A DNA stretch of 64,000 nt from an uncultured Candidatus Saccharibacteria bacterium (GCA_964652615.1 CAZZAT010000002.1:7296-71295); one strand, 5' to 3'; positions 1 to 62,501 are shown, counted from the stretch's first letter. The notes: generated from the sequence alone by a model not told the origin. Translations and numbers: made by a program.

Positions 1-471
1 GCGCACATCCGCACCCTCATCCTTACCTTGTTCTATCGCCACTTCCGCGCTGTCATCGATGGCGGCTTCGTATACATCGCACAGCCGCCCCTCTACAAGA
101 TTAAGCGCGGCAAAGAAGTGCACTATGCATACACGGACGAGGAGAAGTTTAAGATAGTAGGGAAAGATGCAGAGATAGAAACAGGAGAAGGAGAGGAGCC
201 GGAGGAGGAAGAGGAGGGTGCAGAAGAGGATACAAAGAAAAAGACCGCGTCCAAGAAGTTCTCCATTCAGCGCTATAAAGGTCTTGGAGAAATGAATGCG
301 TCAGAATTGTGGGAGACCACCATGGATCCAAAAGCACGTGTCTTGAAGCAGGTAGAAGTGGAGGATGCCGCCGAAGCAGATCGCATCTTTGATGTGCTTA
401 TGGGTACCGACGTTGCTTCGCGCAAGTCATTTATTCAATCAAACGCAAAGCTTGCGAATCTGGACGTGTAA
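1..471 (+). CDS. gyrB: DNA gyrase subunit B, C-terminal fragment (5' end outside window)
   Basis: The frame is open from nt 1 (AHIRTLILTLFYRHF...). It carries the conserved GyrB C-terminal motifs PLYKIKRGK, YKGLGEMN, LWETTMDP and DAAEAD, and includes an acidic insert. Confidence 0.9.
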   Translation, partial: AHIRTLILTLFYRHFRAVIDGGFVYIAQPPLYKIKRGKEVHYAYTDEEKFKIVGKDAEIETGEGEEPEEEEEGAEEDTKKKTASKKFSIQRYKGLGEMNASELWETTMDPKARVLKQVEVEDAAEADRIFDVLMGTDVASRKSFIQSNAKLANLDV

Positions 472-481
472 CATGACGAGC

Positions 482-512
482 CCCTCTTGCGAGGGGCTCT
501 GGGTTTTTAGGG
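482..512 (+). terminator. Intrinsic terminator downstream of gyrB
   Basis: Hairpin agcccctc-ttgc-gaggggct followed by ctgggttttt. Confidence 0.6.
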
Positions 513-629
513 CGTGCCGTGCGAGAAGGCGATCATGAAGGCAGCAATGCCTCCTGCAATTCCGACGTACAACACGGCGCGAGCGATGTGGCCGAGAAGC
601 GTGAGTTTCCCGTCTTTCGTCACAAGCAT
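507..629 (-). CDS. Small hydrophobic peptide (40 aa; MLVTKDGKLTLLGHIARAVLYVGIAGGIAAFMIAFSHGTP), absent from the ORF track because it is under 60 aa
   Basis: An ATG is preceded by AGGGAG at 6-7 nt spacing, with its own promoter-like element upstream and the stop inside a hairpin. The product has a single predicted TM helix. Confidence 0.3.
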   Translation of the reverse strand: MLVTKDGKLTLLGHIARAVLYVGIAGGIAAFMIAFSHGTP

Positions 630-655
630 AGGTTTCTCCCTGTTACCTGAATTTA

Positions 656-683
656 ATGATATCATAAATGAATATAAAGTCAA
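656..683 (-). promoter_or_regulatory. Putative sigma70-like promoter for the small ORF at 507-629
   Basis: On the minus strand, TTGACT (plus 678-683), a 16-nt spacer, then TATCAT (plus 656-661). Confidence 0.3.
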
Positions 684-720
684 GAAGAAACCGCCTCGGG
701 TATTCCGAGGCGGTTTCTTC
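684..720 (-). terminator. Strong hairpin (16-bp perfect stem) immediately downstream of the CARDB gene
   Basis: gaagaaaccgcctcgg-gtatt-ccgaggcggtttcttc, a perfect inverted repeat; on the minus strand it is followed by a T-rich stretch. Confidence 0.55.
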
Positions 721-729
721 GTTCTCCCG

Positions 730-1464
730 TTAGTCTATCTCAAGCTCGATAGAGCGGTCGTTGTTTCGCTCGTTAGACTCATCAACGCGGTCGTCGTAGT
801 CGACTTCAATGTCGATATCAATATCGCGATTCTCGCGAGGGTCTTCGATGCGAAGCGTGAAGTTCTGGTAGCCGTTTGGCATAAGGTAGCCGCCGTTGCC
901 GCGCACCGTATCCTCGCCCGTTACCTCTACCTGAACGCGCCAGCCGCTTGCGGCGTTGGTGCCAATGTTCTTTACGGTAAAGCGGACAGCGCCATCGCGG
1001 TTTGAAGGAACGGTATCATCTTCAACAAACGTCGAACCGCGGAAATAGCCTGCCTCAAGATCTGTTATGACAAGATCAGCGCGTCCGTAGAGTTCAGGTG
1101 TCTGCGGGTAATACACCGGAGTCTGGGGGTAATAGACTGGTGGGTTTGGAGAAACAGCAACGGGAGGCGTCACAACTTGTGGGCCACCTGTCTGTGGGGT
1201 GGAAGGAGTTTCTGGTGCAGGAGCCTCTTCCTCCTCTTCGACAGGAGCAGCAGGGGCCTCTTCCTCTTCAGGATTTTCCTCGTTGTCAGAAGAGAGAATA
1301 ACTGCAGAAGAAAGACGTGAAAGGGTTTCTGGAACGTAGCGTGCTGCGTAGATAGCAAGAAAGATGCCCGCTATGATGAGCGCGCCAAAACCAACGATAG
1401 CGAGGCCGTTTACGGCCGCTTTCTTCGTTTCTTCAGAGTTTGCCATACCAAAGGAGCGTACCAC
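730..1464 (-). CDS. Membrane-anchored CARDB-domain protein
   Basis: An N-terminal TM helix, a Pro/Glu-rich linker (PVYYPQTP repeats) and a C-terminal CARDB-like beta-sandwich (DLVITDLE...VKNIGTNAASG...ESNERNND). Confidence 0.7.
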   Translation of the reverse strand: MVRSFGMANSEETKKAAVNGLAIVGFGALIIAGIFLAIYAARYVPETLSRLSSAVILSSDNEENPEEEEAPAAPVEEEEEAPAPETPSTPQTGGPQVVTPPVAVSPNPPVYYPQTPVYYPQTPELYGRADLVITDLEAGYFRGSTFVEDDTVPSNRDGAVRFTVKNIGTNAASGWRVQVEVTGEDTVRGNGGYLMPNGYQNFTLRIEDPRENRDIDIDIEVDYDDRVDESNERNNDRSIELEID

Positions 1465-1534
1465 TGCAAGAGATACTTGTCAATAGCTACGAGAAAGCAG
1501 GGAGAGATGCTCTTGTGCTAGAGTAAAAAGCATC

Positions 1535-2185
1535 ATGGCTGAACAGAAGGGGTCAACTGCCTTTGAAAATGTCCTTCGCCGCAAGTGGAGCTTCCTTGCG
1601 CTCTTCACGCTTGTCTATTTCATCTCACTTTCTACACTTGCAGGCTTTGGCCTTGCGCCGTGGTCTTCAGAGCCTCCTTCATTTGTACCAAGCGAAGGGG
1701 AGACAGTAGTGGAGGGAAGTAATCCCATTGCGGTAGCACAGGGAGAATTGCCGCTTCGCATCGAGATACCAAAACTCGGCATTCGAACGACAGTTTCAAA
1801 CCCAACCTCTGCAGCTATCTCTGTCCTTGATGCTGAACTCACCAAAGGCGCTGTGCGCTATCCAGGTTCCGGTACTCCAGGGGAAGCAGGTAACGTCCTT
1901 ATTTTCGGCCACTCAAGCCAGCTGCCTGTGGTGCAGAATCAGGCGTACAAAGCATTCAACGACATCCAGAAACTGAACGCCGGAGATGTGATTTTTGTAC
2001 TTGGCGAAGAGCACGCCTACGTGTATGCGGTTGAGAGCGTGTCAGAAGCAAACACCGCATCAGACGCAGTGCCGCTTGCGGTCGATGGCGCAAAGCTTAC
2101 TCTTGCTACCTGCAATAACTTCGGCTCAAAAGAGGATAGATTTATCGTCGTTGCGAACTTGGTGAAGGTGGATGTGTTGCCGTAA
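1535..2185 (+). CDS. Sortase family transpeptidase
   Basis: An N-terminal TM anchor, a His-containing LIFGHS motif, the catalytic TLATC motif (sortase TLxTC) and the downstream conserved Arg. Divergent from the CARDB gene. Confidence 0.8.
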   Translation: MAEQKGSTAFENVLRRKWSFLALFTLVYFISLSTLAGFGLAPWSSEPPSFVPSEGETVVEGSNPIAVAQGELPLRIEIPKLGIRTTVSNPTSAAISVLDAELTKGAVRYPGSGTPGEAGNVLIFGHSSQLPVVQNQAYKAFNDIQKLNAGDVIFVLGEEHAYVYAVESVSEANTASDAVPLAVDGAKLTLATCNNFGSKEDRFIVVANLVKVDVLP

Positions 2186-2210
2186 AGATTTTTAGTAGAG
2201 GAGAGAATAC

Positions 2211-2237
2211 GCTTCTTTACAAGAAGCCGTTTTTCTT
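2211..2237 (+). terminator. Weak hairpin plus T-tract after the sortase gene
   Basis: gcttctt-tac-aagaagc followed by cgtttttctt. Confidence 0.35.
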
Positions 2238-2290
2238 ATACTGTCCAGTCGGAATCCTTCAACACTTCAACCTCGGAAAGGAGGACTCTA

Positions 2291-2995
2291 ATGAAGGATA
2301 GTGAACAAAACCAGAAGCTTTCTGGGTGGGTGAAGTTGAGTATCGGCATTGTTCTGGCACTCCTTTTTGGTGTTTCGTTCCAACTCGATCCTTTTGGAAC
2401 TGGAAACGGTCCAGAGGCACGAGTTGGAGGCATTCTTCCACAAATTCGTATTTGGATGGAAGAGCGCGAAACAGCAGAAAAAGAAAAACAGGAACGTGTT
2501 GAGCGAGACGTTGCTGAGGTTGTTGAGCCGGAGGCAAAAGCTACGCCACGCCCAAATCGAGCACGACGTGTTTCCACACAAAGAGAGCCGACACTACATG
2601 TCTTAAATGGGACATATGGCGACTTTGAAGCGACAGGCACGTTTGCCGATATAGGCACACACCGGCTCGCTCCTGGTTCACACGTATCAACTTCCATATA
2701 TCTGCCTTCGAGAAATGGAGTTGGGTCTGTTTCGATAGATTTTGGCCCGCGCAGAGTGGACGCAACTGGTATTTTCCATGCGAAACTGCCACGATACGTC
2801 CGAAATCTGCGAACGGGAGACTTCATCGATCTTGCTTCACGTCGCTATAGGCTTGTCATTTCAACTGATGACGAGAGATATCGAGGCTGTGGTGCTCGTT
2901 ACAACATTCTCGAGGAAGGCGACTCTACAGGCTGGTTTTATGGAGCAGACAGAATATTTTGTGCAAGAAATGAAGGGGTCCCCGACCTCTACTGA
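2291..2995 (+). CDS. Hypothetical membrane-anchored extracytoplasmic protein
   Basis: A strong SD (AAAGGAGG) and an N-terminal TM helix; no recognisable domain. Confidence 0.6.
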   Translation: MKDSEQNQKLSGWVKLSIGIVLALLFGVSFQLDPFGTGNGPEARVGGILPQIRIWMEERETAEKEKQERVERDVAEVVEPEAKATPRPNRARRVSTQREPTLHVLNGTYGDFEATGTFADIGTHRLAPGSHVSTSIYLPSRNGVGSVSIDFGPRRVDATGIFHAKLPRYVRNLRTGDFIDLASRRYRLVISTDDERYRGCGARYNILEEGDSTGWFYGADRIFCARNEGVPDLY

Positions 2996-2997
2996 AA

Positions 2998-3030
2998 CCT
3001 CCGGCGCATACGCGCCGGAGGATTTTCTAT
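2998..3030 (+). terminator. Intrinsic terminator
   Basis: cctccggcgc-atac-gcgccggagg followed by attttctat. Confidence 0.7.
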
Positions 3031-3045
3031 AGGATCCCGTAAGTA

Positions 3046-3074
3046 TTGACAATCGGTCATTATTGGTGTAGTAT
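3046..3074 (+). promoter_or_regulatory. Putative promoter for the gene at 3111
   Basis: TTGACA, a 17-nt spacer, then TAGTAT. Confidence 0.4.
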
Positions 3075-3110
3075 ATTTTCACAGTCGTACCCAACATAAG
3101 GAGGGAAGAA

Positions 3111-3635
3111 ATGGCTGAAGGTTCTAATTCATCGTACGGTTCCAAGATCGTCGCCATCATTACGACAGGGTTGATTGTCGTCGGCCTTATCGCTGCACTC
3201 GGATGGTATGTTCTGCCATTCATGTACAACGAAAGGATTCCGTTTGAGTCCGAAGCGGAGACTTCTTCCGTGCAGACTGCAACAGAAGCTTCAACATCTC
3301 CTGTCGTTGTTGTGCAGGTACCTCAACCACCGCAAGCTACAGTGTCCGCTCGGCAAGAAGTCAGAACAGCCTTCGCAGGCAACTCTGGCAATGCTGCTGT
3401 AGAAATGCAGCTTGGTGAACACTTGGGGAGCGGCGAAGTGCGTGCGTCCGATGTCGGAATCGACGTAGCAGGAACCATCGTCGACACGGGAACCGGTTAC
3501 CGCCACTACGGTCAGCCGGTTCGCCGTCCCAATGGCACGGTCTGTCGATCTCTGCCGTCAGGAGAAAGACAATGCGTTCCGGGGGTTTGCACTGCAGACC
3601 CTCAGTCAGGCCGACAAGTGTGCCGACCGACGTGA
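3111..3635 (+). CDS. Hypothetical membrane-anchored protein with a Cys-rich C-terminus
   Basis: SD AAGGAGGG, an N-terminal TM helix, and a C-terminal region with 6 Cys (CRSLPSGERQCVPGVCTADPQSGRQVCRPT). Confidence 0.6.
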   Translation: MAEGSNSSYGSKIVAIITTGLIVVGLIAALGWYVLPFMYNERIPFESEAETSSVQTATEASTSPVVVVQVPQPPQATVSARQEVRTAFAGNSGNAAVEMQLGEHLGSGEVRASDVGIDVAGTIVDTGTGYRHYGQPVRRPNGTVCRSLPSGERQCVPGVCTADPQSGRQVCRPT

Positions 3636-3650
3636 AGACACCTTAACTAA

Positions 3651-3686
3651 GGGCCAGAACACACGACGTGTTCTGGCCCTTTCTGT
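3651..3686 (+). terminator. Intrinsic terminator (12-bp stem)
   Basis: gggccagaacac-acgac-gtgttctggccc followed by tttctgt. Confidence 0.65.
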
Positions 3687-3691
3687 ACCTC

Positions 3692-3720
3692 TTGACATAT
3701 GTTTGCTAATAGTTTACAAT
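3692..3720 (+). promoter_or_regulatory. Near-consensus sigma70-type promoter
   Basis: TTGACA (3692-3697), a 17-nt spacer, then TACAAT (3715-3720). It lies about 105 nt upstream of the 3826 start, with a hairpin-rich leader in between. Confidence 0.5.
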
Positions 3721-3825
3721 ACTCTTTGTGTGGGAAGCTGTTTGCTTAGGAACGAAACGAGGCGTTTCCCAAGCAGTCAGCTCTCCGCTGGGAGAGTGTG
3801 TACAACAGAATGAAAGGAGGGGGCG

Positions 3826-4704
3826 ATGCTGAAGAAGCTCACCCTTATTCTGCTTGCGTTCGCGGGGATTACTTCTGCGACGCTTGCACCGGCAAACGCC
3901 GAGATTACGTGGACGACATGGGGGGAAGCCCCGTACGCTTCGTCGTACGACGAAGCGGTCAGGCGCCTCCCTGACGCGCTGCGTACTCTGAACATTCCGG
4001 AGTCTGTAAGGACTCTCTTTCTGGAAGAGGTGCGCCGCAATCCGCAAGGAGCGCGTGTGTATCTGACGCCAGGAAACCGCTTCACAGCAATGATGTCGGG
4101 TGGGCGTGCTCCGCACGCAATGCAAGACGTTGTTGTTGGACGCAATCCGGTTCGCCGGGGGGCTGTCCAAGCGGCTGAGGCACGCGAGTGGCGTGTGGAA
4201 TATCAGGGCCAGATCTATATCTTGGTTTTGCCGGAAATCTGTTTTAACTGGGCGTGGCGTCAAGAACCACGTCCGCAGGAGATTCCTGTTGAAGAACCAT
4301 GTGCGGTCGTCACGCTGACGATTGAGCAGGGACGAGGACAACTGCTTTTCGGCGGTCTCTCGCCCACAGCGTCGCCCCCGTCACGTTGTTTTGCTGTGAA
4401 GCAAGGCAGTGGTGAATGGGAAGCGCTTCCAGGCGGATGTATCGAATGCGTCCGCTGGCAACCGGTCTTAGCGAGACTTCCCGAATCTGCGGCTGCGGAC
4501 AGAAATGTCAGCATGCAAAGCAGAATCGTGATTCGCGCAACAACGGTACAAGTCAGAGTCCCGGTTTGGTTTGAATCCCACCACTTGGGTTTCTACTTGC
4601 TCGCGGAAGATGGCTTGTGTAGTTGGCTCGTTGTACAACCAACGGACTGGCGCTCGCATGCGTTCAGCTTCAGAGATTGGAGATGGCGGCCGCGAGGCCA
4701 CTAA
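3826..4704 (+). CDS. Secreted hypothetical protein
   Basis: SD AAAGGAGGGGG and a cleavable-looking signal peptide (MLKKLTLILLAFAGITSATLAPANA); no known domain recognised. Confidence 0.6.
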   Translation: MLKKLTLILLAFAGITSATLAPANAEITWTTWGEAPYASSYDEAVRRLPDALRTLNIPESVRTLFLEEVRRNPQGARVYLTPGNRFTAMMSGGRAPHAMQDVVVGRNPVRRGAVQAAEAREWRVEYQGQIYILVLPEICFNWAWRQEPRPQEIPVEEPCAVVTLTIEQGRGQLLFGGLSPTASPPSRCFAVKQGSGEWEALPGGCIECVRWQPVLARLPESAAADRNVSMQSRIVIRATTVQVRVPVWFESHHLGFYLLAEDGLCSWLVVQPTDWRSHAFSFRDWRWRPRGH

Positions 4705-4801
4705 ATCCCGTGTGGGACGACAGCGCATGCTGCTGTCGTCCCCCACGCTCTTTTTTGTACGGGCGTCCATTAATAGTAGTCGCACCGTTTATTAAAAAAT
4801 T

Positions 4802-6133
4802 ATGAACACCATTACTACCACTATGAAAAGTCCAATACTCGGCTATTCCGGTCTCTTTGGCATGCTTGTAGCGCTTGCGCTTGGCGTAGCGTTTGCTTTC
4901 GCGTCCGGTCTTGCAACCCCGCAACCTGCAAACGCGTACATCGCCGACTACGGTGATTGTTACGATTGTGGCGGATGGGAACAGGGCTACGACACGTACA
5001 TCCCGTACGACGACTATGGTTACGGATGGGAACAGGGCTACGACACGTACATCCCGTACGATGATTATGGCTACTATTGGGAGCAGGGATACGACACCTA
5101 CATTCCGTACGATGATTACGGGTACGACTACTACGACTACGGGTATTACGATGATTCGTACTACTACGACTACACCGACTACTACGCGTACGACTACTAT
5201 GACTACGGGTACTACGATTCGTACGACTACGACTGGTACTACGACTACGACTATGATTACGGCTGCTACAGCGGCTGCAATCCGCCCACCTTCGACTATT
5301 GTTCGAACATCCCAGGCAACCAGCCTGCAGGCTACAACTGCTACCCAGACAACGGCTGCCATAACCACTGCAACCCTCCGCACGACGAGTGTTCCAACAT
5401 TCCTGGCAACCAGCCTGATGGCTATGACTGCTACCCTGACCACGACACGGAACCCGTTTGTACGCTCTCTGCTGACGATAAGAACCTAGAGGAAGGGGAC
5501 TCAACAAAGCTTCGCTGGACGAGCGATAATGCAACGTCTGCAAGCCTTACCTCTTTCGGTTCTGTATCAACGGACGGCACTAAAACCGTATCGCCAACGT
5601 CTGATAAGACGTACACCCTTACGGTGCGCGACAATGATGGCGACACTGATACGTGTTCTGTAACCATTCGTGTCGAGGAAGAGGATGAAGATGAGGAGGA
5701 ACCATGGTGCCGCCTCACCGCATCTGACTCTCGTGTTGATGAAGGCGATCGCATTACCCTTGAATGGGATACGCGAAACGCAGACTACGCTTCTATCAAT
5801 CAGGGCATTGGCCGTGTTGATGAAGATGGCGGCGAAGAGCGCTTCACTATGGATGATGACGACATCACCTTCCGCATGACGGTTCGCAATAGCGACGGCG
5901 ACGAGGATACGTGTTCAACCACGGTTCGCGTTGACGAAGAGAACGATTTCTCTTCAGTCTCGTTCGAAGGTGAGCCGGTAAACAACCCTCCTGTGGTGTA
6001 CCTCTCGTCGCTGCCATACACGGGTATCGAAGACCTTTCACCTTCTATGATTGGCTTCCTCGCAACCCTTCTTGCCCTTATGGGTATGGGCGGCTACTAC
6101 TTCTTCGTGAAGCGTAAGCAGGTTATTGCCTAA
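4802..6133 (+). CDS. LPxTG-type cell-wall-anchored surface protein with a Tyr/Asp-rich repeat region
   Basis: A signal peptide; three tandem 17-aa repeats (GWEQGYDTYIPYDDYGY) followed by a long Y/D low-complexity tract; two Cys repeats (CNPPxxDxCSNIPGNQPxGYxCYPD); two approximately 80-aa Ig-like repeats; and a C-terminal LPYTG sorting signal with a hydrophobic segment and a KRK tail. Confidence 0.75.
   Translation: MNTITTTMKSPILGYSGLFGMLVALALGVAFAFASGLATPQPANAYIADYGDCYDCGGWEQGYDTYIPYDDYGYGWEQGYDTYIPYDDYGYYWEQGYDTYIPYDDYGYDYYDYGYYDDSYYYDYTDYYAYDYYDYGYYDSYDYDWYYDYDYDYGCYSGCNPPTFDYCSNIPGNQPAGYNCYPDNGCHNHCNPPHDECSNIPGNQPDGYDCYPDHDTEPVCTLSADDKNLEEGDSTKLRWTSDNATSASLTSFGSVSTDGTKTVSPTSDKTYTLTVRDNDGDTDTCSVTIRVEEEDEDEEEPWCRLTASDSRVDEGDRITLEWDTRNADYASINQGIGRVDEDGGEERFTMDDDDITFRMTVRNSDGDEDTCSTTVRVDEENDFSSVSFEGEPVNNPPVVYLSSLPYTGIEDLSPSMIGFLATLLALMGMGGYYFFVKRKQVIA
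4973..5125 (+). repeat. Three tandem 51-nt repeats inside the surface-protein gene
   Basis: Units at 4973-5023, 5024-5074 and 5075-5125 are near-identical (ggatgggaacagggctacgacacgtacatcccgtacga...). Confidence 0.85.
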
Positions 6134-6147
6134 CAAGCACACTAAAG

Positions 6148-6182
6148 AAAACCCCGAAGCAATACGCTTCGGGGTTTTCTTT
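6148..6182 (+). terminator. Intrinsic terminator after the surface-protein gene
   Basis: aaaaccccgaagc-aatac-gcttcggggtttt followed by cttttgg. Confidence 0.7.
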
Positions 6183-6197
6183 TGGTACACTCTACAC

Positions 6198-6488
6198 ATG
6201 GATACCCAAACGCTCCTCTACTACGGCGCCCTCGCTCTCTGGAGTGCCTTTATTGCCTATACGATTCTCTTCTCCTTCCGAAAGCAACAGAAGGAGACCG
6301 TACAAGCGCCCCCTCCTGCACTAGCGCCTGTTTCTTATGACGTACCGCGCAGCGTACCTTCTGTATATGAACCCACCCCCATCCCCGAGCATGCACGAGC
6401 ACTTGCTACTGATGGCTTTCGAGCCTTTCAGACAGGAGATGAACTCACCGTCGAAGATATTGTAAAGGGGCTTTCAAGAAACGAATAA
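6198..6488 (+). CDS. Small membrane protein (hypothetical)
   Basis: Begins MDTQTLLYYGALALWSAFIAYTILF downstream of the terminator; the listed ORF start at 6126 would run through the terminator. One TM helix and a Pro-rich tail. Confidence 0.45.
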   Translation: MDTQTLLYYGALALWSAFIAYTILFSFRKQQKETVQAPPPALAPVSYDVPRSVPSVYEPTPIPEHARALATDGFRAFQTGDELTVEDIVKGLSRNE

Positions 6489-6513
6489 ATCTCCCTTAGG
6501 GGAGATTTATTTC
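6487..6513. terminator. Bidirectional hairpin terminator
   Basis: aaatctccc-ttag-gggagattt, with A-tract and T-tract flanks. Confidence 0.6.
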
Positions 6514-6538
6514 CGCACAATTCTACACTTTTCCTAGT

Positions 6539-6754
6539 TTAGGAGAGCACATCAAGAGTGGCGTGGTTGTCTCGGCGAGATTTCAAGGCAATCTTGTGTT
6601 CACCCTCGGCATCGGCGTATGTGTATACCTTACCTTCCTCACCGTACATTTCAACGCGTCTCTTGAAAGTCTCGAGGTCGGGGATGTTGGAGTCTGCTCC
6701 CTCGGCAGTTACAAGGATTCCGGGGACATAATCTGGCTTTCCTTCAAATGGCAT
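6539..6754 (-). CDS. Hypothetical small acidic protein (71 aa)
   Basis: An ORF downstream of thrS on the same strand; weak SD; no domain recognised. Confidence 0.3.
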   Translation of the reverse strand: MPFEGKPDYVPGILVTAEGADSNIPDLETFKRRVEMYGEEGKVYTYADAEGEHKIALKSRRDNHATLDVLS

Positions 6755-6802
6755 GTGATATTAGGTTATTCCAATAACTGCACCTAATAAATCGTACTAT
6801 TT

Positions 6803-8062
6803 TTACTTGTGAGTGGTCTTACGGCTGTGTACATGTTCTAAGAACACATCAACGGTCATAGCGTCAAGTTTTCCTTCGTCGCGTCCCTCAACCGAAACCG
6901 TCTTCGCTTCAACTTCTGCATCTCCAACCACAAGGAGGTAGGGAACCTTCTCTTCTTTGCCGCTTCTAATCTTTTTTCCAAGCGATTCGTTTGAAGCATC
7001 ACACTCTACGCGTATATCCTTAGCGCGAAGCGTGTCTGCAACTTCTTTTGCATATGCAAGGTGTTTTTCAGAAACGGGAAGCACCTTTGCTTGTACTGGA
7101 GAGAGCCAGAGCGGAAATGCGCCTTTGTATTTCTCGATAAGGAAGGCCATAGTCCGCTCAATCGAGCCGATAGAGGAGCGGTGCACGACGAAAGTACGAT
7201 GCTCCTTGCCGTCCTCGCCTATGTACGAGAGATTGAACTTCACCGGAGAAGAGAGGTCGTACTGCACGGTAAACGCAGTATCTTCCTTGCCGTTGACGTT
7301 CTTCATCTGAATATCAATCTTGGGGCCATAGAAAGCGGCCTCGTCTTTTTCTTCAACGAACGCAACGCCGCGCTTGTGCATTGCTTCGCGAAGCAGTGTT
7401 TCGGCCTTCTCCCAGCCAGCATCATCCTTGAAGTACTTCTCGGTATTCGCGCGATCTCCAAGCGACAAACGATACGAATAGTCCTCGCCCATCTTGAGCC
7501 CGAGGACGCCGTTTGCGTATTCAATAAGATCGAGCGCCTTGTGTATCTCTTCAATAGCCTGCTCCTCGGAAGCGCAAATAATATGTGCGTCTGAAAGACA
7601 GAAACTGCGGACTCTTTGAAGGCCCATTAATTCTCCCGACTGCTCGTAGCGGTACAGCTTTGCAAGTTCTGCATAGCGGATAGGGAGTTCGCGGTAGCTG
7701 TGCGGCTCGCGAAGATAGAGTTCGAAGTGGTGCGGGCACGTCATCGGACGGAGCATGAACTGCTCGTCTTCGTCGGTGATAGGCGCGTACATCGAATCTT
7801 TGTAGTGCGGGTAGTGGCCTGACTTCTCATAGAGTCCAAGCTTCGCCATGTCCGGCGTAATCACATGCTGATATCCGCGGCGTATCTCCTCATCGACGAT
7901 AAAGCGCTCAAGCTCGCGGCGTATTGTTGCACCCTTTGGCGTAAAAAGCGGCAAGCCTTTGCCGACAACATCCGAGAAGGCAAAGAGGTCGAGCTCCTTG
8001 CCAAGCCTCTTATGGTCATTCTCCTTTCCTTGGTTAGGTTCCATACCAGTCGAGAATAACAC
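6803..8062 (-). CDS. thrS: Threonyl-tRNA synthetase, minimal form (catalytic core plus anticodon-binding domain; no N-terminal TGS or editing domains)
   Basis: Class II aaRS motifs (HKRLGKELDLF, PMTCPHH, FVVHRSSIGSIER) and a C-terminal anticodon-binding domain; only 419 aa. Confidence 0.9.
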   Translation of the reverse strand: MLFSTGMEPNQGKENDHKRLGKELDLFAFSDVVGKGLPLFTPKGATIRRELERFIVDEEIRRGYQHVITPDMAKLGLYEKSGHYPHYKDSMYAPITDEDEQFMLRPMTCPHHFELYLREPHSYRELPIRYAELAKLYRYEQSGELMGLQRVRSFCLSDAHIICASEEQAIEEIHKALDLIEYANGVLGLKMGEDYSYRLSLGDRANTEKYFKDDAGWEKAETLLREAMHKRGVAFVEEKDEAAFYGPKIDIQMKNVNGKEDTAFTVQYDLSSPVKFNLSYIGEDGKEHRTFVVHRSSIGSIERTMAFLIEKYKGAFPLWLSPVQAKVLPVSEKHLAYAKEVADTLRAKDIRVECDASNESLGKKIRSGKEEKVPYLLVVGDAEVEAKTVSVEGRDEGKLDAMTVDVFLEHVHSRKTTHK

Positions 8063-8072
8063 ACAACGCGCT

Positions 8073-11000
8073 TTAGAGCGGCTTTACGTTCTCAAGGGCA
8101 AGCGATATTTCTCCATTTCTTGAGGAAACTTTTGCCTTTATCAGCATGCAATTGCCGGCCGATAGAAGCTTGGCATGTTCCTTGAAAAGGCGCGGGAAGG
8201 CCACTGCTTCAATAGATCCTGTCTTATCCTCAAGCTTTAGAAACGCCATCTTCTCGCCGCCCTTGGTGAGTATCGCGCGCGCCTCAGTAATAAGGACAGG
8301 GAGTATGAGTGTCATGCCGACCACCGGTTCTTCAAGGAGCGCTGCAATCGTCGTACCTGCTTTCGATGACTTCTCGGCATGCGCATCAAGCGGATGCCCG
8401 GAGACATAGATACCAAGCAGTTCTTTTTCCCATGCAAGCTTGTCGATAAGGGAGGTAACGGAGTCTGCAGAAGGCAGGGTAAGCGTGGGCGGGGCAACGG
8501 CGCCAAACAAAGAGTCTTGCGCTTGGGGTGCTGTTGCGTCCCGATGGAAAGTGAGCAGGGTCTCGATGTGCGCAATGAGATGCGAGCGTTCGCCAAGCGC
8601 ATCAAGCGCACCGCACTTAATCAAGGACTCAAGCGACTTCTTATTCAGATTCTTCGATCCGATACGAACGAGAAACTCCGAAAGGGAAGCAAACGGACCC
8701 CTCTCACGCTCTTGCATGATACTTTCTGCAATACCTTCGCCAAAGTTCTTAATTGAAGAGAGGCCGAAGCGTATCTTTGTTCCCGCATCAACGATGGTAA
8801 AGGTAGAGCGACTTTCGTTGACGTCTGGAGGAAGCACTGGTATCGAAAGGCGCTCGCATTCAGCGGCAAGCACGGCAATCTTCTCAACATCGCCCGCGTC
8901 TGCGGTAAGAAGAGCGGCCATGTATTCAACAGGGTAGTTGGCCTTCATATAGGAAGTCTGATACGCCACTTTGCCGTAGCTTGCTGCGTGTGAGTTGTGC
9001 ACAATGATGTCGTTTGCAATGAAGTTTTGAAGAACAGACACAGAGAGGTCGTAGGTCATTTCTTCTCCATCAGGTTCAATACTGCGGATTTCATCCCAAA
9101 ACACGTCGCTTCTTGCATGCTCGGCAAGCGTCTTTGAAGAGAGGGCTACAGCAGTTTTCTCAAGCACTGCACGCGTATATCCGCGCTTTCGTGTGTCTTC
9201 ATAGAAAAGGCGTTCTGAAAGATTTGTACATCGTGCAAGTTCTGCTATAGGCACTCCTTGCCGTGCAGCTTCTGCACGTATGTGTTCGAGTATCTGCGCC
9301 GGAACAGTATCTGCTGTTCCTCGTCCTCGTGCATTGGTCCGTACGGAACAAAGGCGCACCAAAAGTGCGAGCGAATCGCGTTTTGTTCCGATAAGGTGTG
9401 CGCCAGCAGTTTTTTCAAACCGTGTAAGATTTTCTATACCCGTAACGGTAACGGTATACCCGATACGCAAGCTCCCGCGATACCAAAATTGTTTACGATG
9501 TATCGTTGAAAGTATTGAAAGGCGAAGAAGTACATGCTGTACGTCGTGCGCAAGGTGCTTAGAGCTGGTCGCATAGAACACCTGCTGATTTTTGAGGGAA
9601 ATAGCTCCATCTCCCTGCCACATCTTCCCGAGCATGAGTGCAAGAGAATCGTTGTTCCAGGTAAGCACTGAATCAGGAATTTCTTTCTCTGTAGCGCGCT
9701 TCCCTCGAATACCAAGTCTCTCTGCCCATACAAGCATGCCATTTTGTTCTTTCTGGGTACGTCTGCCTACATATGCGCTTATAGCAGCTTTTGAACGATT
9801 TAAGGTCACTTGTGTGCCCGGGAAGCAGAGCGCTGCACGCGAGAAATCTGCAATCTCATTTTCCTGTGTCGAGTACATGTATAAACCATGCGGATGGCAC
9901 AGATTTCCCTCCGAGAGCAAATATCCAAGCGCTGCCGCTTCGTGTGCTGGGGCTGCACAGGATTCCGTTGGTTCGGGGAGATGGCGTGGAACAGCGATAC
10001 GTGCGCCAGCAGACAGCTCGCCAAGCGGGCGCCACCCTGCAAATGTGAGCAGAGGATGATTGTCTGTTGCACGAATAGTACGGCCGGAACGGGTGGTAAG
10101 GCGGAAGACACGCTTTACGCCATTTTCTCTAACCCAAGAGCCTTGTCCCTCTACAAGCTTCTGGCCTTTCGACAAAGCGAGTACGGGCACTTTACCTTTC
10201 GTTTCAATAAGGGTTTTCAGTGATGTGCGAGAACCTGTTTTTGGATTGTAAATACACGTATCACCCGTTAAGCACTTATTAAACCCATACGCTGCAAAGG
10301 GTTCGATAAGTTTCCAAAGCTCTTCCGCACGCTTTTGTGGGAGCTTTCCATGCTCTACAAAGCCACTAATAAGCTTCTCGCGTTCCGCTTCCATCACTTC
10401 CGGAATCTTCTTACCCATCGCTTTGCGGAGCATGTCTGCCTGAAGCCACGAATAGCCGCCAAGCGTAATCGAGGTCAAAAGCACGTCGTCTTGGTACACC
10501 AGAAGGCCGTAGGAAGCGTCGAGGTAGTCTTTCATGCGCTCATCCATATACGTAATGAGCTTCGGGTTTCGTTTGCGCTCGATGTACTGCGGGATGGTTT
10601 CGATAGGGCCGGGGCGATAGAGCGCCACCATAGCGTTGATGTCATGGATGGTTGTAGGCCGGAGTTCCTTCAGATACCGAGTCATGCCCGAGCCGTTTAA
10701 CTGGAAGGTGCCTTCTGTTTCTCCGCGCGCAAGCATGGCAAAAGTCTTCTCGTCATCAAGCGGCACGTTTTCAATATCAATGACGATGCCGCGCGTTTCT
10801 CGCACGCGCTCCACCGAGTCTGCGAGAATGGCGAGGTTCTTGATGCCAAGGAAGTCGAACTTCAAAAGGCCCGCATCCTCAATGGAATGCATATCGTACT
10901 GGGTGATAAGCTTGCCTGTTTTTTGGTCGGTCTGAAGCGAGGTCCACTCGGTCAGCGGCGTAGGGGAAATAACGACGCCAGCGGCATGTACGCCCGTGTG

Positions 11001-12491
11001 GCGGGCAGAACCTTCAATACGCCGTGCAAGATCAATAATTTCCTTCACATCATCATCTTCTTGGTAGAGCTGCTTCAACTCTTCTTCCATCGTAAGCGCG
11101 CGGTCAATAGTCATAGGGAATCCTTGAGAGCCAAGGGGAATGAGCTTTGCAATGCGATCTCCCGTGCCGTATGCGTGTCCCAAAGCGCGCGCAACGTCGC
11201 GCACTGCCGCTCGCGCAAGCATGGTTCCAAAGGTGCCTATCTGCGCAACGTGGTCTTCACCATACTTTCTTTTTGCGTACGCAATCATCTCGTCGCGCCT
11301 ATCGTCGGCGAAGTCCATGTCGATGTCGGGCGCTGACGGACGCTCGGGGTTCAAGAAGCGCTCAAACGGCAGCTTGTATTTCATCGGGTCTACGTTGGTA
11401 ATGCGGGCAAGATAGGTAACTAGCGATCCTGCAACCGAGCCGCGAATGGTGGTTAGGATGTGGTTTTCGTGAGCGAAGTTGAGAAGGTCGGATACAACAA
11501 GGAAGTAAGGCGCATAACCCTTTTGCTTGATGACCGAGAGCTCGTATTCAATGCGTTTTTCAACTTCCGGTGTCTTCTCCATGCCGCGTGCAGACAATCC
11601 TGCATAGGCTTTTGCCCGAAGTTCTTCGTCGTGGTCGCTAAATCCTTCAGAGACCGCAAGCGCAGGGAACACCCATTTGCCAAGTTCAAATTCAAGAGTG
11701 CAGCGCTCTGCTATTTCTCCTGAACGGTCGACTGCCTCTCCCATATCTTTGAACCATGCGCGCATATTCTTTTCGGATACAAACGAGAAGTCTTCCTTTT
11801 CGTTGTATCCTTCGCTTCCTTGCTGGATGCGCCGCAATACCGCACATGCTTCGCGGTCATCAGGGGAGAGGTAGTACACATCATGCTGCGCAACGAGCGG
11901 CACGCCGCTTTCTTGCGAGAGCTTCTTAATCTGTTCCATCTTTTGCGCGTGCCCTTCTACCGATGGGTGGTGCGTAATTTCAAGGAAGACATTTTCTTTT
12001 CCGAAGATGCTTTGCCAATGAGCAAGAGCGGCCGCAGCTCCTTTTGCGTCGCCTCGTGAAAGCAATTGTGACGTGTCTCCTGCAAAAGAAGGAATGAGCG
12101 CAATGAGTCCTTTCGCATGTTTTTGCAGAAGCTCGCGGTCCATGCGCGGGCGCTCAAAAAAGCCATCGGTATACGAAGCAGTCACAAGCGCAAGCAAGTT
12201 CTTATACCCTTCCTGATTTTCAACAAGAAGCACGAGGCGCGAGCGCTTTTCATCTCGGTCGTGCACTAATCGTGATGCGGGAGCGATATAGGCATCAACA
12301 CCAAGCACTGCTTTAATGCCCGCCTTCTTCGCTTCTTTATAAAACTCAATTGCGCCATGCAGGTTGCCTTCATCGGTTAGGGCAAGCGCTTCCATGCCTT
12401 CCTTTTTTGCAGCCTCGACAAGCTCAGGCACTTTCGGAAGGGCTTTTAAGAAAGAGTAGTGGCTGTGGGTGTGTAGGTGAACGAATGCCAT
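8073..12491 (-). CDS. dnaE: DNA polymerase III alpha subunit (DnaE) interrupted by an in-frame intein
   Basis: An N-terminal PHP domain (MAFVHLHTHSHYSF), a polymerase core and a C-terminal OB fold. The conserved GFNK|SHAASY motif is split by a 427-aa insertion. Confidence 0.9.
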   Translation of the reverse strand: MAFVHLHTHSHYSFLKALPKVPELVEAAKKEGMEALALTDEGNLHGAIEFYKEAKKAGIKAVLGVDAYIAPASRLVHDRDEKRSRLVLLVENQEGYKNLLALVTASYTDGFFERPRMDRELLQKHAKGLIALIPSFAGDTSQLLSRGDAKGAAAALAHWQSIFGKENVFLEITHHPSVEGHAQKMEQIKKLSQESGVPLVAQHDVYYLSPDDREACAVLRRIQQGSEGYNEKEDFSFVSEKNMRAWFKDMGEAVDRSGEIAERCTLEFELGKWVFPALAVSEGFSDHDEELRAKAYAGLSARGMEKTPEVEKRIEYELSVIKQKGYAPYFLVVSDLLNFAHENHILTTIRGSVAGSLVTYLARITNVDPMKYKLPFERFLNPERPSAPDIDMDFADDRRDEMIAYAKRKYGEDHVAQIGTFGTMLARAAVRDVARALGHAYGTGDRIAKLIPLGSQGFPMTIDRALTMEEELKQLYQEDDDVKEIIDLARRIEGSARHTGVHAAGVVISPTPLTEWTSLQTDQKTGKLITQYDMHSIEDAGLLKFDFLGIKNLAILADSVERVRETRGIVIDIENVPLDDEKTFAMLARGETEGTFQLNGSGMTRYLKELRPTTIHDINAMVALYRPGPIETIPQYIERKRNPKLITYMDERMKDYLDASYGLLVYQDDVLLTSITLGGYSWLQADMLRKAMGKKIPEVMEAEREKLISGFVEHGKLPQKRAEELWKLIEPFAAYGFNKCLTGDTCIYNPKTGSRTSLKTLIETKGKVPVLALSKGQKLVEGQGSWVRENGVKRVFRLTTRSGRTIRATDNHPLLTFAGWRPLGELSAGARIAVPRHLPEPTESCAAPAHEAAALGYLLSEGNLCHPHGLYMYSTQENEIADFSRAALCFPGTQVTLNRSKAAISAYVGRRTQKEQNGMLVWAERLGIRGKRATEKEIPDSVLTWNNDSLALMLGKMWQGDGAISLKNQQVFYATSSKHLAHDVQHVLLRLSILSTIHRKQFWYRGSLRIGYTVTVTGIENLTRFEKTAGAHLIGTKRDSLALLVRLCSVRTNARGRGTADTVPAQILEHIRAEAARQGVPIAELARCTNLSERLFYEDTRKRGYTRAVLEKTAVALSSKTLAEHARSDVFWDEIRSIEPDGEEMTYDLSVSVLQNFIANDIIVHNSHAASYGKVAYQTSYMKANYPVEYMAALLTADAGDVEKIAVLAAECERLSIPVLPPDVNESRSTFTIVDAGTKIRFGLSSIKNFGEGIAESIMQERERGPFASLSEFLVRIGSKNLNKKSLESLIKCGALDALGERSHLIAHIETLLTFHRDATAPQAQDSLFGAVAPPTLTLPSADSVTSLIDKLAWEKELLGIYVSGHPLDAHAEKSSKAGTTIAALLEEPVVGMTLILPVLITEARAILTKGGEKMAFLKLEDKTGSIEAVAFPRLFKEHAKLLSAGNCMLIKAKVSSRNGEISLALENVKPL
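8994..10274 (-). mobile_element. Intein (427 aa) with LAGLIDADG-like homing endonuclease domain in dnaE
   Basis: Spans aa 740-1166 of DnaE. It starts with Cys1 (CLTGDTCIY, block A), has a TxxH block B (TDNH), LAGLIDADG-like motifs (LGYLLSEGNL and LALMLGKMWQGDGAI), and ends in VHN followed by a Ser +1 extein residue. Codons verified: 10272-10274 revcomp tgc (Cys) and 8994-8996 revcomp aac (Asn). Confidence 0.8.
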
Positions 12492-37757: not shown

Positions 37758-38837
37758 ATGCAAACAGCACCCGTACGAAACCTACACAAAACCATGCGCG
37801 TCACAGATGAAATCCTTGAACGGTACCGCACGCAAAGCGCGGCGTTCATGTCGCCCGACCAAGCCGGCGCCCGCCGGTTCTACCGCTCGCAGCACCGCAC
37901 CGAAATAGCGGTGTTGAAGTGCATGGACGGCAGGCTCAACTTGGCGCTCATGACGAATACGCCGCCCGGCATTCTCTCGCCGTTTCGCACGATGGGAGGA
38001 AAGTTCAACATGGGGTGGCCGTGGTTTGGCGACCTCATCGATGAATGGGTGAAGCATGCGTGGGAGAAGCAGCGCAGCGCGGTCATTCTGGTGACCTACC
38101 ACTTTTCGCGCTCCCATAATTCGCATCTCGGATGCAAAGGATGGGGGTACGACCAAGCGGCTGCACAGGATGCGGCGCATGCGCTCGTGAACGACATTGG
38201 GCGCATCTATGGCGTCGGGCACGATGGCGTTCGCGCTATCGTAGTCGGTATTGAAACGGATGAAGACGCACTCGTTTTTCACGGAAATGGAACGCTCGAC
38301 TTGGCACAAGAGGCGGACACCGCTGAATTTGAGCTTCTCGAGAAGTTTCGCGTTCTTTTCCCTGGCATGGGACTTCAAGTTCTTTCCGATGTGTTTGAAC
38401 TCGTGAAAGGCAATATTGCGCATATCGCCGAGATTCGCGCCAAAAAGCGCGAACCTATCGACATGGACCATCGCGAAAACATCATCGGGGTGGGCCGCGG
38501 TTTCGATTCGCTCCATATGCCCAACCGAGCGCTCATCATCGGCCCCTTCGATCATGGGTGGCCAAACGAAGTGGCAGTCGCAGGAAAGATTGTTAAAAGC
38601 AATCTTGAAGCGGGCCGCATCAACGTCGAGGACGGCTTCCTTTTGCTGTGCTCGTCTGCGTTTCGCAAGGACCGCGGCACGGGCCTTGAACGGCACCGCT
38701 CTGAATTCCGAGCGAAGGAAATTGCGAAGTACGCTCAAAAGGCGCTTACCGAGGCAGTTCCCGATCTTACATTCGATGTCGTTATCGGCACTGTCGATAT
38801 GGATACTCGCGAACTCTACGTTCTCGAGCGGTCATAG
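37758..38837 (+). CDS. Hypothetical protein (359 aa) with a CxDxR ... HxxC motif pair
   Basis: VLKCMDGR at aa 52-59 and SHLGCKG at aa 122-128 resemble the zinc-site spacing of beta-carbonic anhydrase, but overall similarity is not established. Confidence 0.5.
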   Translation: MQTAPVRNLHKTMRVTDEILERYRTQSAAFMSPDQAGARRFYRSQHRTEIAVLKCMDGRLNLALMTNTPPGILSPFRTMGGKFNMGWPWFGDLIDEWVKHAWEKQRSAVILVTYHFSRSHNSHLGCKGWGYDQAAAQDAAHALVNDIGRIYGVGHDGVRAIVVGIETDEDALVFHGNGTLDLAQEADTAEFELLEKFRVLFPGMGLQVLSDVFELVKGNIAHIAEIRAKKREPIDMDHRENIIGVGRGFDSLHMPNRALIIGPFDHGWPNEVAVAGKIVKSNLEAGRINVEDGFLLLCSSAFRKDRGTGLERHRSEFRAKEIAKYAQKALTEAVPDLTFDVVIGTVDMDTRELYVLERS

Positions 38838-47779: not shown

Positions 47780-47781
47780 AG

Positions 47782-49701: not shown

Positions 49702-49704
49702 AGA

Positions 49705-50853: not shown

Positions 50854-50856
50854 ACT

Positions 50857-51216
50857 TTAGGCAGCGCGCCCGAAGTCATCTTCGAGCCGCTCGATATCTT
50901 CTTCATTAAACTCACCAAACGCTATCTCAAGAACCGTAATGCCTTCAGGTCCTCCGGTGAGCCTATGCGCCATCCCTATCTTCACCAGTGTCTCATCACC
51001 CACCTGCAATGTACGTGCTTCACCCTCAAGCTCAAGCGTGCCGCTTCCGCGTATAACGCGCCAGAACTCTTCGCGTCCTCTGTGTCGCTGCAGCGAGAAG
51101 CGTTTATCCGGCGCAACATGCAGAAACTTCACGGTGCACTGCTCATTCTCTACAAAGCGCTCAAACGAACCCCACGGGCGCTCCTCTTTGTAATAGGTAT
51201 CTAAAGGGTGGGCCAT
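50857..51216 (-). CDS. Mannose-6-phosphate isomerase type II cupin domain protein
   Basis: ERPWGSFE, KVKFLHVAPDKRFSLQRHRGREEFWRV, GMAHRL and LEIAFGEFNEEDIERLEDDFGR match the PMI C-terminal cupin. The start is at M89, after AGGAGG. Confidence 0.75.
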   Translation of the reverse strand: MAHPLDTYYKEERPWGSFERFVENEQCTVKFLHVAPDKRFSLQRHRGREEFWRVIRGSGTLELEGEARTLQVGDETLVKIGMAHRLTGGPEGITVLEIAFGEFNEEDIERLEDDFGRAA

Positions 51217-51325
51217 GCTCCTCCTATAATACCGCATCCTCTCCCTATACTTCCCGTGGATTGCTCCATGAAAGTGAAAGGTATATAAAGGTCTCACACC
51301 TGACGCTAGCACTAGGAGGTTGGGT

Positions 51326-62484: not shown

Positions 62485-62501
62485 CCTAGCACATATTCCC
62501 C

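Follow-up and report, generated by a model that had tools for sequence, protein, structure and literature searches.

The window, by which we mean the whole analysed stretch of 64,000 nucleotides, carries a sortase gene together with a gene for an LPYTG-bearing surface protein. The open reading frames between 730 and 6133 lie where the initial annotation had placed them, with the sortase gene divergent from that of a CARDB-domain protein. Absent from that annotation was a small gene at 6198-6488: the open reading frame listed at 6126-6488 overruns the terminator of the substrate gene (6144-6184), and the conserved gene begins only behind it. The locus comprises the following features:

730..1464, minus strand: CARDB-domain type II membrane protein (Pfam CARDB, 1.4e-9), divergent from the sortase
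1535..2185, plus strand: sortase, an N-terminal transmembrane anchor followed by the catalytic domain (Pfam Sortase, 1.3e-20)
2211..2237, plus strand: terminator-like hairpin and T-run after the sortase gene (terminator scan)
2291..2995, plus strand: u1, 234-aa N-terminally anchored protein, lineage-specific, with a strong AGGAGG ribosome-binding site
2998..3028, plus strand: intrinsic terminator after u1, 10-bp G+C-rich stem, then ATTTTCT
3046..3074, plus strand: promoter-like TTGACA-17-TAGTAT upstream of u2, 10/12 matches
3111..3635, plus strand: u2, 174 aa, anchored at its N-terminus and Cys-rich at its C-terminus; orthologue in L009
3649..3688, plus strand: terminator hairpin after u2, 14-bp stem and T-rich tail
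3692..3720, plus strand: promoter-like TTGACA-17-TACAAT upstream of u3, 11/12 matches
3826..4704, plus strand: u3, locus-specific secreted protein of 292 aa with Cys residues, two beta-sandwiches and one helical lobe
4709..4758, plus strand: terminator hairpin and T6 after u3 (terminator scan)
4802..6133, plus strand: sortase substrate, 443 aa, with signal peptide, Y/D tract, Cys modules, Ig1, Ig2 and sorting signal
4972..5261, plus strand: tandem DNA repeats beneath the Tyr/Asp tract, three units of 51 bp followed by degenerate ones of the TACGAC type
6011..6025, plus strand: LPYTG sortase recognition pentapeptide, residues 404-408 of the substrate
6144..6184, plus strand: intrinsic terminator of the substrate gene, perfect 17-bp stem and T-run
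6198..6488, plus strand: small 96-aa membrane protein, a transmembrane segment and 'module S' (...DGFRAFQTGDELTVEDIVKGLSR), homologous to the tail of relatives
6489..6512, plus strand: terminator after the small gene (terminator scan)

The sortase scores 73.9 bits against PF04203 (cutoff 26.6). It retains the Cys/His/Arg triad, as its His in GHSS, Cys in TLATC and Arg in DRF align in register with GHRN, TIVTC and DRY of the solved sortase 4d70, and also with 2kw8. It remains below the cutoff of TIGR01076 (31.3 against 39.35) and of every curated NCBIfam class model (A-F and GN; NF0337xx and TIGR03784), with scores of 53.5 against 160 for class E, the best, 40.4 against 165 for D, 33.7 against 166 for F, 26.2 against 160 for C and 18.3 against 158 for GN. 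Judged by these profiles, it is an unclassified sortase that belongs to no curated class.

The 443-aa protein bears the signal peptide, LPYTG motif, transmembrane segment and KRK of an LPXTG-type substrate, in agreement with its initial description as a classical sortase substrate. It consists of a signal peptide (residues 1-45), a Tyr/Asp tract (46-154; nucleotides 4937-5263), two Cys modules (155-215, the modules proper at about 159-182 and 190-212), Ig1 (216-295), Ig2 (296-380) and a sorting signal (381-443), in which LPYTG at 404-408 is followed by a membrane-spanning hydrophobic segment (412-436), KRK (437-439) and the end of the chain at 443. The start at 4802 is backed by MNTITTT in two homologues (P0002 and P0003), while the NCBI start corresponds to M8 (P0001). 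The architecture described beforehand, a Tyr/Asp-rich tract, duplicated Cys modules and two Ig-like repeats, is borne out: Y and D make up 65% of residues 54-153, and AF2 yields two confident Ig-like sandwiches at 219-292 and 302-378 (pLDDT >90), with the Y/D tract disordered (pLDDT about 32). Foldseek finds tandem Ig proteins at E about 1e-6, and the Big_9 and K319L-like PKD HMMs score 20.1 against a cutoff of 23.6 and 19.1 against 27; the protein is an Ig-like/PKD-like member at the fold level only. The anchor HMMs end marginally under their cutoffs (TIGR01167, 15.2 against 15.9; PF00746, 15.5 against 20). There is no other LPxTG-type open reading frame in the 64 kb window. An Rfam search of positions 1-9000 returned nothing above gathering; a sub-threshold Thr_leader match at 6144-6184 was discarded as being the substrate terminator alone.

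What is the small gene behind this terminator? In about 45 of 73 family members, the transmembrane segment of the substrate is followed by a tail of 240-466 aa with two conserved modules, S and H. Comparing the small-protein family with these tails, hhalign reports a probability of 99.8% (E 1.9e-27), the homology starting directly after PYTGxxxG; this profile-profile comparison is decisive, as pairwise alignment and phmmer detect the relationship only weakly. Orthologues of the small gene lie directly downstream of the substrate gene in L001, L003, L006, L008 and L009, and among 31 matches in the library one, P0157, is a fused form, while P0149 and P0152 are stand-alone TM-S-H proteins. The small gene is a detached counterpart of the cytoplasmic tail, which in most relatives forms part of the PYTG protein itself. 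The small protein matches neither Pfam nor NCBIfam, the tail profile matches nothing among PDB sequences or in Pfam, and tblastn finds modules H and B nowhere else in the 64 kb window.

The CARDB protein, with an N-terminal transmembrane segment, scores 38.5 bits against PF07705 (cutoff 22.7); the true start of its gene is probably the ATG at 1446. Orthologues with 53-61% identity occupy the same position in L001, L003 and L006. In some relatives (P0086, P0088) it bears an Ig domain about 75% identical to Ig2 of the substrate, and in L004 it carries an aromatic/acidic tract.

Of the three secreted or signal-anchored proteins reported after the sortase, u1 and u2 have an N-terminal transmembrane segment and u3 has a signal peptide (cleavage ANA|E) and no sorting signal. 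None of them matches Pfam or NCBIfam. They are nevertheless real genes, and each has homologues of similar length in related genomes. For u1 this is a single database homologue of equal length (P0164, 57%), whose locus L011 carries u1, u2 and u3; for u2 it is one protein in L009, 45% identical and sharing the C-terminal ...PNGTVCR...GER.CVPGVCT.DPQ..R..CRPT, with positional analogues in L003 and L008. A search with u3 gave 11 matches, itself included.

The initial annotation had these genes transcribed independently, each from its own promoter and with its own terminator; the terminators are borne out, the promoters only in part. A strong hairpin with a T-run lies 3' of every gene in the locus, and a scan gives 18 terminator-like sites as compared to 6.8 +/- 2.6 in shuffled sequences. 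Promoter-like sites, by contrast, are not above chance (6 in the region, 3.8 +/- 1.9 expected), and just two are convincing, those at 3046 and 3692. The long 5'-UTR hairpin before u3 is no more stable than shuffles (z = -1.2).

Neither the substrate nor its locus is an isolated case. There are 117 substrate homologues, all from Paceibacterota/Parcubacteria and all with the same plan, among them one that NCBI has already annotated as an 'LPXTG cell wall anchor domain-containing protein'; sortases were moreover known to be enriched in CPR (PMC6744442). The architecture, formerly described as unprecedented-looking, is therefore shared, and the whole locus is kept in dozens of species. Going by the names of the homologues (Paceibacterota, Parcubacteria or Minisyncoccia), the organism belongs to the CPR, in line with the earlier suggestion of a reduced-genome lineage. 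The gene order in L001-L008 is gyrB, CARDB (minus), sortase (plus), variable genes, PYTG (plus), thrS (minus) and dnaE (minus). Across 78 species-level loci, a sortase lies upstream of the PYTG gene in 69, directly abutting it in about 17, a CARDB-like partner is present in 58 and thrS in 64, and the number of variable genes between sortase and PYTG gene ranges from 0 to 3; most of the loci that lack a sortase end at a contig end. As this single position between gyrB and thrS-dnaE recurs in dozens of species, we regard the locus as a conserved, single-copy and, as far as synteny can tell, vertically inherited part of the Paceibacterota core genome. The conserved synteny leads us to reject a horizontally acquired island, as does the GC content, which is uniform across the window and gives no sign of foreign origin. 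In the literature on PYTG motifs and on CPR, Parcubacteria or Patescibacteria sortases or LPXTG proteins we found no study of the PYTG family; it is an undescribed but widespread protein family.

Within the family, a motif search with the third position left free finds [LIVM]PYTG in all 73 on-target open reading frames of species genomes, in each a few residues ahead of the transmembrane segment and between conserved flanking residues; among protein matches, with the same freedom, the motif picked up is PYTG in all but two, one of which has an IPYTG as well. Conservation reaches 64-73% in Ig2 and the sorting signal, and C303 and C371 are invariant, while Ig1, the Cys modules and the tract are present in some members and missing from others. 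Even close relatives differ strongly in how long the distal tip is, which unit it repeats and which modules it contains, and the cassette between sortase and substrate is likewise variable.

What can be concluded about the function of this system? We consider it probable that a bacterium of the Paceibacterota (Parcubacteria, CPR) has here a dedicated sortase-substrate locus, passed on by vertical inheritance and displaying an Ig stalk with a variable aromatic/acidic tip, with the CARDB protein as a conserved partner that swaps modules with the substrate in related genomes. The 443-aa protein would leave the cytoplasm through Sec and stay in the membrane by means of the C-terminal transmembrane segment and the KRK stop-transfer signal. 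The adjoining membrane-anchored sortase would then read V-Y-L-S-x-[LIV]-P-Y-T-G-[LIVF]-[ED], cut between T and G, and move the ectodomain onto the cell wall. The displayed product would present a conserved membrane-proximal stalk of disulfide-bonded Ig-like domains, bearing a fast-evolving distal tip of Cys modules and a disordered, strongly acidic, Tyr-rich tract that arises from DNA tandem repeats. This tip is the likely ligand-contacting part, be the ligand an envelope polymer or the surface of a host or partner cell, and u1-u3 would constitute a variable set of accessory proteins, either secreted or anchored. The small gene encodes a transmembrane-plus-cytoplasmic module, which the sortase cut would release in fused relatives and which the lineage of the window makes separately. 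Gene content, folds, the invariant motif, synteny and the tail homology are observed facts in this picture, whereas the cleavage, the attachment to the wall and the binding of a ligand are inferred. The window also contains a DsbA-like gene and a VanY D-Ala-D-Ala carboxypeptidase gene, in keeping with disulfide formation outside the cytoplasm and with a wall of peptidoglycan, respectively; VanY and the adjacent sortase are also the only indirect pointers to the putative T|G cleavage and amide linkage to peptidoglycan. The sub-cutoff anchor HMMs, a sortase outside all curated classes, the long tails of most family members, the generic folds and the core-genome position count against this reading. 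An adhesin or host-attachment role of the putative surface protein is plausible, with the generic Ig sandwich folds pointing to nothing specific to adhesion.

The same anchored protein could possibly, if somewhat doubtfully, be a housekeeping component of the envelope, and not a host adhesin. It would then be the major wall-anchored structural or spacer protein, with an acidic, Tyr-rich tract that binds cations or wall polymers of the same cell; anchoring by the sortase would be unchanged. The core-genome position suggests such a role rather than a host-specific one, although position as such fits a housekeeping function as well as an adhesin. The conserved stalk and sorting signal and the lack of a recognizable lectin or adhesin domain argue in the same direction, whereas a hypervariable tip and a varying cassette are rather what one expects of interaction surfaces that are under pressure to diversify. 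A more radical departure from the sortase-anchored surface protein is that PYTG is no sortase site at all, and that the protein is an uncleaved type I membrane protein next to a sortase serving substrates elsewhere in the genome. With 240-466 aa behind the transmembrane segment, the tails of most relatives depart from classical cell-wall sorting signals, which might point to uncleaved bitopic proteins, and the anchor HMMs stay under their cutoffs. However, an invariant P-Y-T-G just ahead of the membrane, the adjacency of the sortase and the lack of a second LPxTG open reading frame in the window make this improbable, and the split forms are most simply understood if the two halves normally part at that point. 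Even less probable, and in our view to be rejected, is that the locus builds a sortase-assembled pilus, the PYTG protein alone or with u3 being polymerized into a covalent fibre. The tandem Ig-like architecture of the substrate does resemble that of pilins, but the ectodomain has neither a conserved Lys nor a YPK-like or E-box-like (Y.L.E[TS]) motif, the class C sortase model reaches just 26 bits, u3 has no sorting signal, and the Ig domains carry conserved disulfide Cys pairs, with no isopeptide-type CnaB domain in Pfam or NCBIfam.

The tails also raise the question whether the anchored ectodomain is the principal product. In an alternative that we hold to be unlikely, the sortase cut serves processing or signalling: it would free the ectodomain from the conserved membrane-anchored cytoplasmic module (S, with H in relatives), and the remnant, encoded separately at 6198-6488 in the lineage of the window, would be the functional output. 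The prevalence of the tails speaks for this, as does a stand-alone gene that resumes directly after PYTGxxxG, and the fused and stand-alone forms indicate that the modules work in several arrangements. A precedent exists in Streptococcus gordonii, where the LPXTG remnant 'C-pep', a short peptide, is sensed by a histidine kinase (summarized in PMC11326707). C-pep is the closest parallel to the tail and small-gene module, being a post-cleavage membrane fragment with a function of its own; the PYTG remnant, however, would measure 90-460 aa and consist of conserved unannotated modules, its function is inferred, and the locus encodes no kinase or regulator. Furthermore, the window substrate has just the canonical short KRK tail, module H is missing from the window, and since the tail modules have no Pfam or PDB match, no signalling function can be named for them.

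The split and fused tails suggest that what sortase processing leaves behind in the membrane is functional in its own right. A broader and rather speculative proposal is that the PYTG family forms a Paceibacterota-specific 'sortase-split' bitopic system, in which a wall-destined Ig ectodomain and a conserved 250-450 aa cytoplasmic domain (S, H), in most species joined in one polypeptide, are cut apart by the adjacent sortase, coupling surface display to a membrane-anchored cytoplasmic factor, while the lineage of the window encodes both as separate genes. If true, this would be a previously undescribed use of a sortase, and the cytoplasmic domain would represent a family that lacks annotation so far. 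Among uncultured bacteria, the Paceibacterota are some of the most abundant, and to our knowledge hardly anything has been learned about the assembly of their envelope or their contacts with partner cells. With its sortase, a single cognate surface protein, the CARDB partner and the tail module, the locus is compact and conserved, and a good candidate for a system by which the surface of these cells is built or used. Since the motif is invariant and the pairing one-to-one, the prediction is directly testable with recombinant sortase and a peptide (VYLSSLPYTGIED), and the PYTG family could serve to tag or pull down cells or hosts.

How does the locus compare with known surface systems? Pam pili are CPR-specific surface structures of Ig-like domains, thought to mediate host contact, and share these domains and the CPR surface with the PYTG locus; they differ in being assembled by donor-strand exchange with membrane-anchored chaperones and no sortase, and they occur in Saccharimonadia and Microgenomatia and not at the Paceibacterota locus treated here (bioRxiv 10.64898/2026.03.03.709456). 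With the housekeeping sortase A of Firmicutes and Actinobacteria, our sortase shares the membrane anchor and the Cys transpeptidase type with its His/Cys/Arg triad, and the substrate shares the signal peptide, LPXTG, hydrophobic segment and basic tail, as well as an Ig-like stalk with a variable distal region. In contrast to sortase A, which has many dispersed substrates and a class model that our enzyme, as with all curated classes, does not reach, it appears to have one adjacent substrate, in which x is invariantly Tyr between conserved flanks and which in most family members has a large conserved cytoplasmic tail. Dedicated pairs of a sortase and a single target are exemplified by SrtB-IsdC and by the 'marine' sortase of class GN and the target encoded next to it (TIGR03784). 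Like these, the PYTG locus places one sortase beside one cognate substrate with a specialized motif, the two being inherited together. It is set apart from them by a PYTG motif instead of NPQTN or the GN target motif, by a TIGR03784 score of 18 bits against a cutoff of 158, by other substrate domains, and by the conserved CARDB partner, the tail module and the site in a CPR core genome.

What kind of system surrounds the sortase gene? The locus is probably a dedicated sortase-substrate pair. It is set apart by an invariant tyrosine in the sorting motif, by a conserved partner protein with a CARDB domain, and by a cytoplasmic tail module that is either split off or fused. ORF calling placed the reading frames where the initial annotation had described them, and the locus includes:

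730-1464 (-), CARDB protein with an N-terminal transmembrane segment (TM; Pfam 1.4e-9)
1535-2185 (+), sortase (Pfam 1.3e-20)
4802-6133 (+), 443-aa substrate
6198-6488 (+), 96-aa protein consisting of a TM and tail module S, directly after the substrate

The sortase reaches the cutoff of none of the curated class models, class E being best with 53 bits vs 160. Its GHSS histidine, TLATC cysteine and DRF arginine align with the catalytic residues of the solved sortases 4d70 and 2kw8. No LPxTG-type ORF occurs in the 64 kb besides the substrate, which comprises a signal peptide, a tract of 65% Tyr and Asp over residues 54-153, and two CNPP...CSNIPGNQP.GY.CYPD modules. Its C-terminus carries the sorting signal previously described, LPYTG (404-408) being followed by a hydrophobic stretch (412-436) and KRK; the predicted target is the peptide VYLSSLPYTGIEDL, in which the cut would fall after T. 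The two Ig-like repeats proposed for it were recovered by AlphaFold2 (56-sequence alignment) as confident sandwiches at 219-292 and 302-378 (pLDDT >90), with a disordered Tyr/Asp tract (pLDDT about 32), Cys modules of low confidence and a C-terminal TM helix. Foldseek returned only generic tandem-Ig proteins (titin, SiiE, GhpA, invasin). The DNA underlying the tract consists of tandem repeats, 51 bp x 3 followed by degenerate TACGAC repeats. Cysteines C303 and C371 are invariant. The window also encodes a DsbA-like protein (39724-40407) and a VanY carboxypeptidase (61615-62529), both consistent with extracellular disulfide formation and a peptidoglycan wall. The CSNIPGNQP.GY.C module (window 5300-5460), which no Pfam model matches, has a C-x-N-[ILVM]-x-G-x-Q pattern common to repeats of other Paceibacterota PYTG proteins, for instance DVCPNISGVQTSVPAGL x3 in the neighbourhood L074 (6265-6540 (+)).

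The observations of the initial annotation and its pairing of the sortase with a cognate substrate stand, but that part of its interpretation which held the architecture to be unprecedented does not. Altogether 117 homologues share the plan of signal peptide, aromatic/acidic repeat tract, optional Cys modules, Ig-like domains, ...VYLSxLPYTG and TM; those with names are all Paceibacterota, Parcubacteria or Minisyncoccia, and NCBI already annotates one as an LPXTG anchor protein. At just 36-65% identity among homologues, the neighbourhoods still match, in the order pheT, gyrB, CARDB-like(-), sortase(+), 0-3 variable genes, PYTG protein(+), in some cases a small TM gene, thrS(-), dnaE(-), rnhB, rpmF, nusB. 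Scanning one genome per species yielded 78 loci from Kaiser-, Campbell-, Taylor- and Nomurabacteria and other Paceibacterota MAGs, with a same-strand upstream sortase in 69, a CARDB-like partner in 58 and thrS in 64; most of the sortase-less loci are truncated by a contig end. With a search pattern that left the third motif position open, each of the 73 on-target ORFs showed [LIVM]PYTG, with conserved flanks V-Y-L-S-x upstream and [FLIV]-[ED] downstream. The shared synteny, together with a GC content that is even throughout the window, marks this as a vertically inherited core locus; a genomic island was rejected on these grounds.

Comparison with six relatives portrays the substrate as a conserved stalk with a variable tip: Ig2 and the sorting region are 61-73% identical, while Ig1 and the Cys modules come and go and the repeat unit of the tract changes. 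The MAG CAZIEY01 holds two PYTG loci, one with a sortase (L088) and one without (L063), and at a further locus (L078) no sortase lies within 6 kb of the gene for an IPYTG protein; thus, in some lineages PYTG paralogues occur apart from the sortase.

About 45 of the 73 species-level PYTG proteins run on for 240-466 residues beyond the TM, the tail containing conserved modules, namely S (...YSxYDGF[KR]SFA..LT[IV]DDIVKGLSRE), H (about 105 aa, ...F[IV]xALLxGDR...LDDAYRAR...) and, in some proteins, an alternative module B; the tail found no match in Pfam or among PDB sequences. With its short KRK tail, the substrate of the window represents the minority form, and the window contains no module H. 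When the small protein encoded behind it was used as a query in a library-wide HMMER search, the 31 matches were mostly stand-alone proteins of 80-125 aa, but included a fused PYTG protein of 609 aa (P0157) and two TM-S-H proteins (P0149, P0152). A profile-profile comparison matched the stand-alone family to the fused tails (probability 99.8%, E 1.9e-27), the alignment beginning right behind PYTGxxxG. The lineage of the window thus splits into two genes what most relatives fuse into one. As the split point coincides with the predicted sortase cut, it lends indirect support to cleavage at PYTG. The split further suggests a function of its own for the membrane remnant; LPXTG remnants, sensed in Streptococcus gordonii by one account (PMC11326707), offer a precedent.

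The CARDB partner, too, is linked to the substrate. In some relatives (P0086, P0088) it bears a C-terminal Ig domain ~75% identical to substrate Ig2, and in a distant relative (L004, 4682-5581 (-)) the CARDB-like partner has its own Trp/Tyr/Asp/Glu-rich tract (…WDAEDWFDWYQDTWDTDSD…), so that this aromatic/acidic module moves between partner and substrate. In a 325-aa protein (P0155), an N-terminal TM resembling that of the partner (..AAVGF...YVP..) is followed by a degenerate 'LSAVPGPIG' and then by modules S and H behind the tail TM; its ectodomains appear to be deleted, a layout which hints at partner and tail lying together in the membrane.

Between sortase and substrate lie u1 (2291-2995), u2 (3111-3635) and u3 (3826-4704), all real genes given their homologues: one of 57% identity and identical length for u1, an orthologue at 45% with a conserved Cys-rich C-terminus for u2, and 11 database matches, itself counted, for u3, several of these on contigs whose lengths equal those of PYTG-bearing contigs. 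Across loci the spacing ranges from 0 to 2.4 kb and often contains the gene of a single secreted, Cys-rich protein about 320-350 aa long; the cassette of the window is the biggest seen. Their proposed independent transcription is borne out for termination, with a strong hairpin and T-run downstream of every gene in the locus (18 terminator-like sites vs 6.8 +/- 2.6 in shuffles), but only partly for initiation, as just two promoter-like sites (3046 and 3692) are convincing and their number in the region is not above chance. One terminator (6144-6184) falls within the mechanically listed ORF 6126-6488, placing the true start of the downstream gene at the ATG at 6198. An AGGAGG is found for each of u1, u2 and u3, whereas the substrate gene (TTTATTAAAAAATT ATG, window 4785-4801) and the sortase gene lack a Shine-Dalgarno sequence; the latter may have almost no leader behind a TGCTAGAGT extended -10-like element.

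What, then, might the pair do? Assembly of a pilus by the sortase is unlikely: the ectodomain lacks a conserved Lys as well as any pilin motif or E-box, the score for the class C sortase model stays far under its cutoff, and u3 has no sorting signal. The Pam pili of CPR bacteria are assembled by donor-strand exchange and belong to other classes (bioRxiv 10.64898/2026.03.03.709456), in contrast to this sortase-based locus of Paceibacterota. A receptor that stays uncleaved would fit poorly with the invariant PYTG motif, the strict sortase adjacency and the split forms. The substrate may be a housekeeping wall protein, favoured by the core-genome position, or a host adhesin, favoured by the hypervariable tip and cassette. 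CPR genomes are enriched in sortases, with one family in more than half of them (PMC6744442), and sortase motifs have been mentioned for CPR surface proteins (PMC5220378); we found no paper on the PYTG family or on a PYTG motif in CPR.

Downstream of thrS, a 71-aa ORF (6539-6754 (-)) without a family match has short ORFs called at the matching place in L009 and L010. With 419 aa, the ThrRS (6803-8062 (-)) is a short form like those of L001, L003 and L008 (409-416 aa), compared to 584 aa in L006 and reading frames of about 1.75-1.9 kb at many genome loci; the enzyme of this clade probably lacks an N-terminal region. DnaE (8073-12491 (-)) measures 1472 aa vs 1016-1120 aa in syntenic relatives, and its surplus of ~420 aa, starting ...NKCLTGDT and ending ...IIVHNSHAASYG, resembles an intein carrying an insert the size of an endonuclease. 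A 359-aa ORF (37758-38837 (+)) gives a weak partial match (5e-7) to the catalytic domain of carboxysome shell carbonic anhydrase, odd in a CPR genome. Finally, two GH130 mannoside phosphorylase-like genes and a mannose-6-phosphate isomerase-like gene are clustered at 47782-51480 (-), adjoined by a fused phosphomannomutase-like/FAD-oxidase ORF (45389-47899).
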